Below, one piece after another: positions 51,270 to 59,506 of a DNA stretch of 64,000 nt (within the stretch, counting starts at the first letter, position 1; each line of letters starts with the position of its first letter). Source of the stretch: an uncultured Prevotellaceae bacterium (GTDB lineage: Bacteria > Bacteroidota > Bacteroidia > Bacteroidales > UBA3663). A program made the translations under genes and the position numbers. The notes below the pieces were generated by a model. The model was not told where the DNA came from, did no database searches, and worked only from the letters and a program-made list of their open reading frames with translations. The stretch covers positions 165,424 to 229,423 of the forward strand of contig ONNR01000002.1 of NCBI GenBank assembly GCA_900319235.1, given 5' to 3'.

Positions 51270-51402
51270 AGTTTTGGTGTTTGTTTTGTTTGATTTATTT
51301 GATTTCTATTGTTTATTTTTATTTGTCGTTGTTTTATTCTAAGACACTTTTACCCCAGTCGATAAACTGGGGCTTTCGATCTAATTGGACCGTTCGGTAT
51401 CA

Positions 51403-51450
51403 TTCGAACCCTTCGAAATTTTTGAACCTTTCGAACCTTTCGAACCTTTC
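51403..51450. repeat. 9-bp-period TTCGAA short tandem repeat
   Basis: TT(C/T)GAA at 51403, 51412, 51421, 51430, 51439. Confidence 0.8.
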
Positions 51451-51451
51451 C

Positions 51452-51961
51452 TTAGTATCCCATCTTCTGCAATACCTCCTTCGAGATATCGATCTTGGGG
51501 CTTGCATAGATGACGCTTTCGGCCGAAGCGCGGTCGATGACCATCGAGAAATTGTTCTTCTCGGCAATCTCTTTCACGGCATTGTAGATGTCATCCTGGA
51601 TGTGTCCCACCAGACTGTTGCGCTTCTGATACAGTTCGCCTTCGGGACCAAAATACTTGAGACGCAGATCCTGCACCTCCTTCTCCTTAGCCAGAATGTC
51701 GTTTTCGCGCTGGATTTTCTGCTCTTGGGTCAGATAGACCATATCGGCCTCATACTGCTTGTACATCTGTTCAGCCTCGGCTGCCAATGTCTCGACTTCG
51801 GCCTGCCAACGCTTGCTGATCTGGTTGAGCTGCTCGTTGGCCATCTCATACTGCGGTATCTGCTTCAGGATATAATCCATGTCGATAAGGGCGTACTTCT
51901 GTGCAAAGGCATTCACGCTGCCCAAGAGGGCGACAACGCATGCGATGATGATTTTCTTCAT
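51452..51961 (-). CDS. OmpH/Skp chaperone
   Basis: QKYALIDMDYILKQIPQY, KYFGPEGEL, IDIS.EVL.KMGY. Confidence 0.93.
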   Translation of the reverse strand: MKKIIIACVVALLGSVNAFAQKYALIDMDYILKQIPQYEMANEQLNQISKRWQAEVETLAAEAEQMYKQYEADMVYLTQEQKIQRENDILAKEKEVQDLRLKYFGPEGELYQKRNSLVGHIQDDIYNAVKEIAEKNNFSMVIDRASAESVIYASPKIDISKEVLQKMGY

Positions 51962-56275: not shown

Positions 56276-57817
56276 TCAACGCAGCTTGTCGAATGTGAGT
56301 GAGTTCAGACATCCTCCCCATACCGAGGTCTTGAATGTGCCATCGGCACGACGTCCACCGAAGAAGTACATCCTGAAGGACTGTGGATCGTAGAAGGCCG
56401 AGTTGCAGGCCACTTTCCCGATTGGTGTATTGTCGGCATACTGGGTGTAGTAGCGACTCAGACGATGCCAGCTCACACCGCTATCCTCCGAATAGTAAAG
56501 CGTCGTATAGTACTTGTTGTACAGTCGATTGGTGGGAACGTCACCTGTGGCAGTAAAGCCTGGATGCAGCAGCCAGAATGTCTTCGGCTTGTCGCTGTCG
56601 ATGGTGTATTCGAGCACCGATGCACCCGTCATACCTGGCATCTCATCCTGCAGGAATTCCACCCAGTTAGGCCCGTGCACATCGTCATTCCAGCCGTCGC
56701 ACGACCAGGTGCTTGACACGAACTGCCCTGAAACCGTCAATCCACCGGTGATGTAGAGCCGGGAGGTGAGGTTGCCGTAGTTGCTGCGTGCTTCAGTCCA
56801 GATGGGACGCGTGAAGCCTGTCACGGGGAAGTTGTCAGGGATTTGCTGAGCCACATGCCAATTCGATGCGTCGGCCGAAACGGCAAAGCGATATGCATCG
56901 TCCACTTTTACGATGACGTTCAACGAATCCTGGTTCCAGTTTCCATAGACGTCCTTGGTCTTATACTGATTGCCCAAAATGGCCACAAACGTTTGTCCGC
57001 TGCTGGCGACTTCCCAGTGGAAACCGTCGGCCGAGGTCATTAGCCTACCGTTGATCTTGCCGATAGCATAGAGTTGGTTGTGCCAGTTGTAGAGTGTCTT
57101 GAGGTCAAGCAGTTCGCCCTCGGCAATGCTGACGTCGGCCATCGCTTGCCATTCAGTGGGACTGTTTTCGCTGAGCTTCGAGGTGCTAACCTTGTAGCTT
57201 TGGCCATTTTCCTCCACAAACCAATAGAGCGTCTGGCCGATGGTGTCGGTGCGCTGGTCTGTGATGTTCATGTCGGCCCACATCTCATCGGTATAGTCGT
57301 GCCAGACAATAGTGTCGCCCTCCACCTTGTGGACATTGACCTTGATGTGGTAGGTTTTGCGGTTGCCGCCGCGAGCCACTATGGTCATGCGTGCATCGGG
57401 GTAGGAGCCGAAGTAGAATGCCGAGTCGGATGAGAATTGTGCATACTGGCCCAGTTCGCCGTCCAGCCCGAAGAGTTCCAGATAGACACTGTCGGGCTTG
57501 GAGAAGCTAACCGAGATCTTTACCGAGTCAGCGATGACACCACGGGGCAGCGAGTCGGGATTGAAGATGATGCCATCGTTGGGATAGAGTGCGTGGATCG
57601 AGTCGTCGCTCAATCCGTAATTGTCGATGGTAAACGAATACTTCGAAAGGCCGGAGCAGACGTTCGTGTTGTCTTCGAGCGAAAACGAAGTTACAATGCA
57701 GTTGTAGTAGTCGGTCACTACTGTCTCCGAGTCGTTGCCTGAGCCCAAACAGGAGGTGAGGCCTATGGCGACCAATGTCCAACAGATCAGACCGGATATA
57801 TGTCGAAATAGTTTCAT
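56276..57817 (-). CDS. DUF6242-like lipoprotein
   Basis: Lipobox LTSC, YSFTID..IFNPDSLP, Y.IKVNVH, FGG C-terminal segment; start reassigned to ATG 57817. Confidence 0.75.
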   Translation of the reverse strand: MKLFRHISGLICWTLVAIGLTSCLGSGNDSETVVTDYYNCIVTSFSLEDNTNVCSGLSKYSFTIDNYGLSDDSIHALYPNDGIIFNPDSLPRGVIADSVKISVSFSKPDSVYLELFGLDGELGQYAQFSSDSAFYFGSYPDARMTIVARGGNRKTYHIKVNVHKVEGDTIVWHDYTDEMWADMNITDQRTDTIGQTLYWFVEENGQSYKVSTSKLSENSPTEWQAMADVSIAEGELLDLKTLYNWHNQLYAIGKINGRLMTSADGFHWEVASSGQTFVAILGNQYKTKDVYGNWNQDSLNVIVKVDDAYRFAVSADASNWHVAQQIPDNFPVTGFTRPIWTEARSNYGNLTSRLYITGGLTVSGQFVSSTWSCDGWNDDVHGPNWVEFLQDEMPGMTGASVLEYTIDSDKPKTFWLLHPGFTATGDVPTNRLYNKYYTTLYYSEDSGVSWHRLSRYYTQYADNTPIGKVACNSAFYDPQSFRMYFFGGRRADGTFKTSVWGGCLNSLTFDKLR

Positions 57818-57992
57818 ATCTATTTTTATACCAAAAATCGTGCGCAAATTTAGTGATTTTTCTTCAAAGATGGCCCTTTTTAGGCACATAATTATAATAT
57901 TTTAGGGGAATTTCGTGTGAAAATGCATTTTTTTTAGAAATTATGACACCTTTTTATGTCAATCTTTCATAAAAAATCCCTAACTTTGCACC

Positions 57993-58952
57993 ATGCTTGA
58001 CACAATTAAAATAATACGCGCGAAGTTGTCGCAGGTGGTCGATTCCCAGGGTTTGCCGCTTTACGACGAGCGTGAAGTGCGTGCACTCGCCGACCTTTTG
58101 CTCGAGGAAGTGTGCGGCATCACACGCACCGATCGTCTCATGCATCCCGAGCGCATCCTCGCTGCCAAAGAACGTACGCGACTCTCGTCCATCGTCGCTC
58201 AAATGGAACAGGGTGTTCCCGTCCAGCAGGCCTTGGGATATGCGTGGTTCTATGGCATGCGTTTCGAGGTGAGCCCCGATGTGCTCGTTCCTCGGCCCGA
58301 AACTGCCGAACTCGTCGATTGGATTGTTACCGATTTGCGTTCGCGCCCAACGTCGTCGTCCGATGTTTCCTCGCCTGTTTCGAAGCCCCTCTCCATTTGC
58401 GACATCGGCACCGGATCGGGTTGCATCGCCATCAGTCTTGCACGTTGCTTCGAGGATGCAAGAGTCCTCGCTATCGACGTTTCTTCGGCTGCTTTGAACA
58501 TCGCTCGCCGCAATGCCTGTCAACAAAATGTTGATAACTTGCAATTCGCTCAAATAGATATACTTGAATATGTTGATAACTTGGATTCAAACATAGAAAA
58601 TACCTCCAAAAACAATACTTTTCCACAGGGTTATCAACATCTCGATATCATCGTCAGCAACCCGCCTTATGTCTGCCGAAATGAGGCTGCCCAGATGTCC
58701 GAAATCGTTCTGGAACATGAACCCGAAGTTGCCCTTTTCGTGCCTGACGACGACCCGCTCCTATTTTATCGTGCGATTGCCCGTTTGGGTCAAAAGCACT
58801 TGAAGAAAGGAGGTTTTCTTTATTTCGAGATCAATGCTGCTTTTGGTGAAGCCACGTGCCAGTTGCTTGGCCAGATGGGTTATCGCAATGTCGAGCTGCG
58901 TCGCGACATCACAGGCCGCGATCGTATGGTGAAAGCAGCCCTCTATAGTTGA
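57993..58952 (+). CDS. prmC: Release factor glutamine methyltransferase PrmC/HemK
   Basis: VLVPRPETAELV, DIGTGSGCIA, IVSNPPY, EP..ALF, FEIN, D..GRDRM. Confidence 0.95.
   Translation: MLDTIKIIRAKLSQVVDSQGLPLYDEREVRALADLLLEEVCGITRTDRLMHPERILAAKERTRLSSIVAQMEQGVPVQQALGYAWFYGMRFEVSPDVLVPRPETAELVDWIVTDLRSRPTSSSDVSSPVSKPLSICDIGTGSGCIAISLARCFEDARVLAIDVSSAALNIARRNACQQNVDNLQFAQIDILEYVDNLDSNIENTSKNNTFPQGYQHLDIIVSNPPYVCRNEAAQMSEIVLEHEPEVALFVPDDDPLLFYRAIARLGQKHLKKGGFLYFEINAAFGEATCQLLGQMGYRNVELRRDITGRDRMVKAALYS
58528..58640. promoter_or_regulatory. Cluster of four DnaA-box-like 9-mers inside prmC (candidate oriC or DnaA-binding locus)
   Basis: TGTTGATAA 58529-58537 and 58571-58579, TTTTCCACA 58619-58627, TTATCAACA 58631-58639, in an AT-rich patch. 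Confidence 0.55.
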
Positions 58953-59035
58953 ATGCTGCCCACTTCCCCTTTTCGGATGCTACCCACTTTCACTTTTAAT
59001 TATTATTTGTTAATTTTTTATTTCTCTTGTCGATT

Positions 59036-59506
59036 ATGAAATTGACTTACGATCAAGCTCTAAATCGTGCTGCCGCCCTCTGTAGCCAGAGCGAACGCTG
59101 TCCTGGCGACATCTTCACAAAGGCACAATCCTGGGGCCTCACTGAGCCGGAGGCTGCCCGCTTGGTGGGCTATCTGACGAGCGAAGGATTCCTCGATGAG
59201 GCTCGTTTTGCCCGAGCCTTCGTGAATGACAAGTTTCGCTTTGAACAGTGGGGTAGAGTCAAGATAAGATACGCCCTTCGAGCCAAGGGCATCGACGATG
59301 GCCTCATCGACGAGGCTCTCGACGAGAAGATTGATCCCGACGAATATCTTGCCACCTGTAGCGACCTTTTGAGCAAGAAGATGCGCACTCTCGACCTTCC
59401 CCTTTCGCCCGCCGATCGTGCCCGTCTCCTTCGCTTTGCCGCCCAGCGTGGCTTCGAATCCTACATTATCTCGAAGGCCCTTCATAGCCTTTCAGACCCC
59501 TCTTAA
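59036..59506 (+). CDS. recX: Regulatory protein RecX
   Basis: CSQSERC, FLDEARFARAFVNDKFRF..WG..KI..ALR.KGI, RFAAQRGF. Confidence 0.92.
   Translation: MKLTYDQALNRAAALCSQSERCPGDIFTKAQSWGLTEPEAARLVGYLTSEGFLDEARFARAFVNDKFRFEQWGRVKIRYALRAKGIDDGLIDEALDEKIDPDEYLATCSDLLSKKMRTLDLPLSPADRARLLRFAAQRGFESYIISKALHSLSDPS

Follow-up and report, generated by a model that had tools for sequence, protein, structure and literature searches.

The prmC gene and its DnaA-box cluster

The window analysed here is a 64,000-nucleotide stretch (G000:C23:165424-229423) from the draft genome of an uncultured Prevotellaceae bacterium (G000, hereafter the window genome; 3,720,789 bases in 46 contigs, 86.5% complete), whose nearest public relatives are metagenome-assembled genomes (MAGs) of uncultured Bacteroidales, several of ruminant source. 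It contains prmC, the gene for the release-factor glutamine N5-methyltransferase, and an AT-rich patch within the coding sequence of this gene carries a cluster of 9-mers that resemble DnaA boxes (Table 1). The product of the host gene possesses the PrmC N-terminal domain (PrmC_N, PF17827), a class I S-adenosylmethionine-methyltransferase fold (MTS, PF05175; Methyltransf_31), and the NPPY motif in its translation, i.e. all of the features expected of a PrmC/HemK protein, and its AlphaFold model, built on a 27-sequence alignment, has a mean predicted local distance difference test (pLDDT) score of 88.

The GC content of the patch is 0.30-0.35, as against 0.52-0.61 across the remainder of prmC. 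A first-pass annotation, made from the letters of the window, had described four 9-mers at this place, each one mismatch away from the DnaA box TTATCCACA, together with an exact 14-bp direct repeat (ATGTTGATAACTTG) at a spacing of 42 bp and a tandem TTTTCCACA-GGG-TTATCAACA (58619-58639) in the opposite orientation to the boxes of the repeat. Re-reading of the sequence confirmed all of these elements: boxes 1-4 each differ from TTATCCACA at one position at most, and all lie within 111 bp. The degenerate box CTGTCAACA forms an inverted pair with box 1, with a 3-nt spacer, and the two are paired in the RNA/DNA fold.

The same annotation had pointed to an odd in-frame stretch before the NPPY motif, where the loop of PrmC is usually short. 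The alignment agrees, as this loop is 13-17 residues longer than in eight full-length homologues from outside the genus. In the AlphaFold model, box 2 falls in a helix (residues 190-198), whereas a coil predicted with low confidence (residues 199-216), ahead of the strand LDIIVS, contains boxes 3 and 4; the mean pLDDT of the block 201-210 is 57. As modelled, the box-bearing segment of PrmC is a tolerant surface segment.

The number of one-mismatch boxes in the window is ordinary (16, as against 12.4 +/- 3.2 in shuffled sequences, 17/100 of which reach 16). Their clustering, by contrast, far exceeds chance: throughout the assembly, 721 one-mismatch matches were counted, and four within 120 bp were found at two sites only, namely prmC and C23:46168-46251. 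The latter lies outside the window. The exact motif TTATC[A/C]ACA occurs 52 times in the assembly and forms only four groups: two clusters, inside prmC and inside a MATE transporter gene, and two pairs, one lying upstream of dnaA and the other between surE and parA-parB.

Table 1. Features of the prmC locus and box-bearing sites elsewhere in the window genome and its relatives. Plain positions are those of the window; the others are given as genome:contig:position.
Feature	Position	Strand	Remarks
prmC, host gene of the cluster	57993..58952	+	319-aa open reading frame; identified by Pfam and NPPY
AT-rich patch with box cluster	58517..58641		Encodes PrmC residues ~176-216, among them those of the extended loop that precedes beta-strand LDIIVS/NPPY
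Degenerate box CTGTCAACA	58517..58525	+	Two mismatches from TTATCAACA; weak assignment
Box 1, TTATCAACA	58529..58537	-	Encodes (N)VDN, just ahead of beta-strand 183-187
Box 2, TTATCAACA	58571..58579	-	Encodes (Y)VDN; part of the second repeat copy (14 bp)
Box 3, TTTTCCACA	58619..58627	+	Encodes (T)FPQ
Box 4, TTATCAACA	58631..58639	+	Encodes (G)YQH; tandem partner of box 3, 12 bp apart
14-bp direct repeat ATGTTGATAACTTG, first copy	58528..58541	+	Exact, read from sequence
14-bp direct repeat ATGTTGATAACTTG, second copy	58570..58583	+	Exact, 42 bp from the first copy
Divergent AT-rich intergenic region, presumed promoters	57890..57992		GC 0.28-0.30; DUF6242 gene (-) and prmC (+); taken as context only
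recX	59027..59506	+	Next gene downstream of prmC, same strand; Pfam RecX_HTH1/2/3
Twin intragenic cluster	G000:C23:46156-46259 (locus L110)		Outside the window; 33% GC patch with three exact and two one-mismatch boxes
Opposed TTATCAACA pair, 63 bp apart	G000:C30:177973-178044 (locus L001)		~400-465 nt upstream of dnaA
Two direct TTATCAACA boxes, 10-nt spacer	G000:C44:4478-4505 (locus L215)		Divergent surE / parA-parB intergenic region
oriC-like region	G050:C3:104238-104608 (locus L057)		Box cluster at skew minimum
oriC-like region	G042:C4:43252-43956 (locus L146)		Box cluster at skew minimum
oriC-like region	G021:C123:~51294-51790 (locus L142)		Box cluster at skew minimum

TTATC[A/C]ACA as the probable DnaA box of the genus

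From its comparative distribution, TTATC[A/C]ACA can be taken to behave as the DnaA box of this genus, because three independent contexts carry the motif, namely oriC-like regions, the region upstream of dnaA, and a directly repeated pair. The oriC-like regions of relatives are AT-rich intergenic stretches (17-36% GC, 0.5-2 kb) that lie between spoU-mutS and nadA-U32 peptidase and are rich in boxes. Six exact boxes in 360 bp, with further ones nearby, are present in G050, six exact and five one-mismatch boxes in 800 bp in G042, four exact and 10 one-mismatch boxes in G007, and 8-10 boxes each, mostly with one mismatch, in G021, G004, and G016. The minimum of the cumulative GC skew coincides with the oriC-like region in all three contigs examined (G050:C3; G042:C4, in its first 120 kb; and G021:C123, where it is shallow). 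This intergenic cluster between spoU-mutS and nadA-U32 is likely to be the oriC of the genus.

Of 30 genomes of the genus, 23 have two or more exact boxes, and 29 have one or more, in the 700 nt upstream of dnaA. Most of these sets share an opposed (+,-) pair of boxes 53-65 bp apart, which probably serves DnaA autoregulation. A direct pair of the form box-N10/11-box was found in 38/39 genomes of the genus, as against one hit overall for the reversed pattern; its parAB context was confirmed in the window genome, and the other genomes were scored by spacing. Five relatives (G046, G002, G007, G009, and G022; loci L055 and L059-L062) contain 5-9 direct pairs at varied sites, e.g. near lrgB, hsp20, and dnaX and downstream of asd, so that secondary clusters differ widely in both number and location. 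Same-orientation pairs at 11-12 bp spacing recur in the prmC, MATE, and oriC-like clusters. A wider consensus in the flanks of the boxes was inconsistent between the coding and intergenic sets.

Instead of DnaA, the 9-mer could be recognised by a different DNA-binding protein, e.g. a transcription factor or a nucleoid protein. Most boxes are indeed TTATCAACA, one mismatch from the classical TTATCCACA, and the recognition helix in domain IV of the DnaA protein (L001:961-2343(-)), which is canonical, reads GGRDHATV as against GGRDHTTV in the Bacillus subtilis structure. We consider this alternative unlikely, as the two words interchange at orthologous sites (the parA-type pair consists of TTATCCACA twice in G011 and is mixed in G054) and as clusters of the motif are found in the two classical DnaA contexts, namely skew minima and the region upstream of dnaA. 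Whether the DHATV substitution causes the preference for A (for C) at position 6 of the box is a matter of speculation.

Selection on the boxes within prmC

Exact boxes are concentrated in prmC across the genus: 50 were counted in the 19.6 kb of 21 same-genus prmC genes, as against one in 61.7 kb of flanking DNA and none in the eight prmC genes taken from other families within the order, and the reversed-word controls gave zero in both prmC genes and flanks. At the one-mismatch level, all 13 orthologues of at least 50% identity (L023-L035) carry 3-7 boxes in the ~300 nt before NPPY. The boxes occupy every stop-free combination of orientation and frame, i.e. (-,2) in 18 cases, (+,2) in 14, (+,0) in nine, (+,1) in seven, and (-,1) in two, and are accordingly translated differently in different species, as VDN, Y-Q/P-H/Q, LST, and (L)IN or LIT. 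Some are placed in the variable loop and others in conserved segments, such as DLST (DIS-x in other families), RLINN after motif I, and GVDN. In the LST boxes, Leu is encoded by TTA, a codon that accounts for 2% of the Leu codons in the window genome. Among prmC genes of 50-98% identity, individual boxes turn over while the cluster persists.

A closer comparison was made among seven distinct prmC sequences of the subclade, sharing 75-99% nucleotide identity. In these, 35 of 36 nucleotides in the boxes are invariant, as against 514/894 outside the boxes and 29/72 between them, and boxes 1, 3, and 4 are unchanged in 7/7 sequences. At degenerate codons whose amino acid is invariant, the synonymous third base is identical at 9/9 sites within boxes and at 56/171 elsewhere. 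When PrmC was recoded synonymously with the codon usage of the genome (20,000 trials), three or more exact copies of TTATC[A/C]ACA arose in 0.085% of trials, with a mean of 0.25, whereas three are observed. As judged from these alignments and simulations, selection is shown to act on the DNA of the boxes independently of the encoded peptide. The boxes are thus conserved beyond amino-acid constraint, the test that the first-pass annotation had proposed for an alignment of prmC from relatives, and its idea that this DNA is dually coded, as a protein loop and as a DnaA-box element, gains support from the upkeep of the box across frames, orientations, and synonymous sites.

Slightly less probable again than a site for another protein is the explanation that the boxes have no function at the DNA level today and are left over from AT-rich DNA, for example from an origin or a mobile element, that was inserted or duplicated in frame within tolerant loops. 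The loop is a lineage-specific feature of varying length, and local duplications are seen both here, in the 14-bp repeat, and in L028, where a CQ(Q)PLSTG unit is repeated. The outer boxes also make 11-bp inverted repeats: ATGTTGATAAC...GTTATCAACAT is present, but these repeats are the boxes themselves. The patch is, however, single-copy in the genome, and its boxes have remained invariant while the DNA between them diverged. Boxes also occur in the recoded conserved segments outside the loop, and their turnover within a persisting cluster likewise speaks against relics. The explanation that the cluster is a by-product of peptide selection or of mutational bias in a low-complexity loop, i.e. 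a disordered, polar loop whose AT-rich codons favour box-like words, is largely refuted by the retention of one 9-mer while the peptide shifts with the reading frame, the invariant synonymous sites, the recoding simulation (P = 0.00085), and the empty reversed-word control.

Two further candidates were rejected. A mobile-element family of the MITE/RPE type was not supported, as a blastn-short search with the 151-bp patch returned the patch itself and chance matches of 13-17 nt only. An RNA element was not supported either: no Rfam match was obtained, and the z-score of the fold (-2.7) is accounted for by the inverted boxes. Conservation of the RNA fold is not expected, because box positions and orientations differ between species. 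A single match to an IHF site was seen by eye only and was not counted. The prmC open reading frames of G008:C9 and G019:C74 are 434 and 394 aa long, with the match split near residue 130, and several U32 peptidase orthologues match from about residue 59 within open reading frames of 462-496 aa; these long frames may represent further in-frame insertions.

A twin cluster in a MATE transporter gene and the setting of prmC

The second cluster of the assembly lies on the same contig as prmC, at a distance of 178 kb, in the part of a MatE-family transporter gene that encodes the central cytoplasmic loop (KIVDKS...GNVDKS...SYQQ). Three to four exact boxes are present in 15 of the 30 orthologues in the genus, all of them at least 62% identical to the protein of the window genome, and one exact box was found in ~80 kb of the flanks of the MATE orthologues. 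Here too the boxes are read in several frames (LST, YQQ, and VDK). The genomes with a MATE cluster are largely those with strong prmC clusters. In G022 (C99:13927-15252, locus L125), the MATE orthologue contains four exact boxes and one in-frame TGA in the match.

The gene prmC itself is flanked by short intergenic DNA of 28-38% GC (58953-59026 and 57800-57992 of the window). The earlier description of operons pointing away from the region on both sides holds only roughly: genes do diverge here, but the point of divergence is the gap between the DUF6242 gene and prmC (57890-57992), ~540 bp upstream of the patch.

The prmC cluster is unlikely to be the replication origin

The first-pass annotation had also proposed the cluster as a candidate intragenic replication origin, and this part of its proposal is not supported. 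The cumulative GC skew of contig C23 climbs from 0 to 223 kb through both the prmC and the MATE clusters, with prmC at a small local maximum, and prmC likewise coincides with no skew minimum in two other genomes (G021:C42 and G045:C52). In relatives, better clusters do lie at skew minima, in intergenic AT-rich DNA, and G021 carries such a canonical oriC-like region in addition to both a prmC and a MATE cluster. Of the properties expected of an oriC, the prmC locus has the cluster of boxes; it lies away from a skew minimum, and in place of a long adjacent stretch of non-coding AT-rich unwinding DNA there is a coding patch of ~110 bp flanked by DNA of 52-61% GC. An origin at the MATE gene, upstream of dnaA, or upstream of parA was rejected on GC skew as well; in G045, neither the MATE gene nor the region upstream of dnaA lies at a minimum.

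The idea that the prmC cluster is the chromosomal origin, part of one, or a secondary origin in the subclade of the window genome nevertheless draws on several observations. The cluster is among the two strongest in the assembly, and the window genome yielded no canonical oriC-like region when all 400-bp windows below 30% GC were scanned. The skew minima of this genome (C36 at ~40 kb, C30 at ~17 kb, and C27 at ~86 kb) were considered as candidates and rejected, as none of them coincides with clustered boxes or with an extended AT-rich stretch of non-coding DNA. When the oriC-like region of G021 was used as a DNA query against five subclade genomes, only short AT-rich matches were returned. Orthologues of the oriC-flanking genes nadA, spoU, U32, and mutS were not found in the window genome, where only distant paralogues were detected, which could be due to an assembly gap or to real loss; mutS was likewise not found in G023 and G024. 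U32 was not found in the nine subclade genomes searched, and the region upstream of mutS contains no boxes in five subclade genomes. In G045, which is 93% complete, clusters of exact boxes are confined to the four loci known from the window genome (MATE, upstream of dnaA, prmC, and upstream of parA). Gene order relative to G042, used to gauge the distance from oriC, was too scrambled for an estimate. Against the skew profiles of three genomes, the coexistence of both kinds of cluster in G021, and the lack of an adjoining unwinding region, these observations leave an origin at prmC highly improbable.

A probable secondary DnaA-binding site in coding DNA

We favour, with a probability of about 0.6, the reading that the four to five DnaA boxes of the patch form a cluster under selection in prmC and constitute a predicted secondary DnaA-binding site similar to datA, DARS, or the DnaA-box clusters (DBCs) of B. 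subtilis. The cluster sits partly in a lineage-specific disordered surface loop and partly in recoded conserved segments. Like those loci, it groups several DnaA boxes within a short distance at a site other than the origin, and its motif is, by comparative evidence, the DnaA box of the organism; it differs from them in lying inside an open reading frame rather than in non-coding or intergenic DNA.

DnaA would bind the patch cooperatively, aided by the tandem boxes 12 bp apart and by the opposed box pairs, and the locus would act as a secondary binding site and not as an origin. Its likeliest role would be a buffering or modulating effect on how much DnaA is free or active, through either availability or nucleotide state, as with datA, DARS, and the B. 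subtilis clusters, and a titration or control-site function of this kind would be plausible. DnaA is known from work on Escherichia coli to act as a roadblock to transcription, and a DnaA-dependent obstruction of prmC-recX transcription might be a side effect. It is also possible, although we put it somewhat short of an even chance, that surface loops of PrmC and of the MATE transporter, housekeeping proteins without relation to each other, have been lengthened and recoded as replication-control loci in coding DNA and that, in the subclade in which the ancestral oriC neighbourhood (nadA, U32, and spoU) was not found, one of them might be an auxiliary origin.

Several points weigh against a selected secondary DnaA-binding site. 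Exact boxes are absent from 4 of the 21 same-genus prmC genes, and the cluster is therefore dispensable in part of the genus; the genes of G002 and G015 lack boxes even at one mismatch. Box 2 shows a single change (GAT to GAA) in one of the seven subclade sequences, the 98%-identical strain L002. The compared sequences share ancestry, so the p-values overstate independence (Fisher p = 7e-5 for the synonymous sites), although the within-gene contrast still stands. No oriC was found in the window genome itself, which is unsurprising at an assembly completeness of only 86.5%. In the portions of the reports considered here (PMC3245932, PMC12371093), known secondary DnaA loci are placed in non-coding or intergenic DNA. 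In B. subtilis, DnaA sites detected in vitro within open reading frames (codV, rplB, and others) indicate that DnaA recognises intragenic groups of boxes; at rplB, however, binding in vivo was undetectable by chromatin immunoprecipitation-PCR, and the authors suspect that transcription displaces DnaA, according to the part of that report consulted (PMC4447404).

The whole case is one of comparative evidence from MAG sequences. If it is correct, a secondary DnaA locus conserved across a genus is superimposed on protein-coding sequence, whereas the known loci come from a small number of model species. Its evolutionary signature is clear to an unusual degree, as one 9-mer is upheld in all stop-free frames while the protein loop changes, and the case offers a testable system for regulatory DNA and protein constraints that share one sequence. 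It also provides a working DnaA box, TTATC[A/C]ACA, and a likely location of oriC for an uncultured rumen lineage. For origin predictors that rank clusters of boxes, it is a caution, since neither of the strongest clusters of the assembly appears to be the origin. In a literature search covering main texts, no paper on intragenic DnaA-box clusters was found, and the literature on TTATCAACA and on the oriC of Bacteroidetes yielded, among the papers listed, nothing on such a cluster.

Comparison with known systems

With a canonical bacterial oriC, the prmC cluster shares clustered DnaA boxes and a tandem spacing of 11-12 bp, but it is neither at a skew minimum nor intergenic and has no long AT-rich unwinding region. 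The DBCs of B. subtilis are closer in that both are multi-box DnaA clusters away from the origin. These clusters bind DnaA stably, and deletion of all six leads to early initiation and over-initiation, as set out in the sections of the report consulted (PMC3245932); some of them regulate neighbouring genes, and their host positions vary among Bacillus species, as far as the consulted parts of these accounts go (PMC3245932; PMC2533591). Unlike the putative prmC boxes, which lie in coding sequence in several frames, the B. subtilis clusters are intergenic. As to the intragenic in-vitro sites of B. subtilis, the passages of the report considered here make no mention of conservation or multi-frame upkeep, whereas the prmC cluster is conserved across the genus.

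In E. coli, the short datA, DARS1, and DARS2 loci carry 3-5 DnaA boxes and serve not to fire replication but to inactivate or reactivate DnaA, in the consulted part of the literature account (PMC12371093). These loci differ from prmC in being described as non-coding, and datA needs IHF, while DARS promotes ADP release; homology in sequence to the prmC patch was neither expected nor seen. In its general layout, ~110 bp with opposed boxes, the prmC cluster resembles the DARS core.

The origin of phage lambda lies in the O gene and consists of initiator-binding repeats and AT-rich DNA that codes for a flexible protein linker. It is a true origin, used by the phage's own initiator and located in the gene of that initiator, whereas prmC and the MATE gene are unrelated to replication. 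It is nonetheless the closest known analogue in terms of dual coding, and the classic example of a protein and a replication element encoded by one stretch of DNA.

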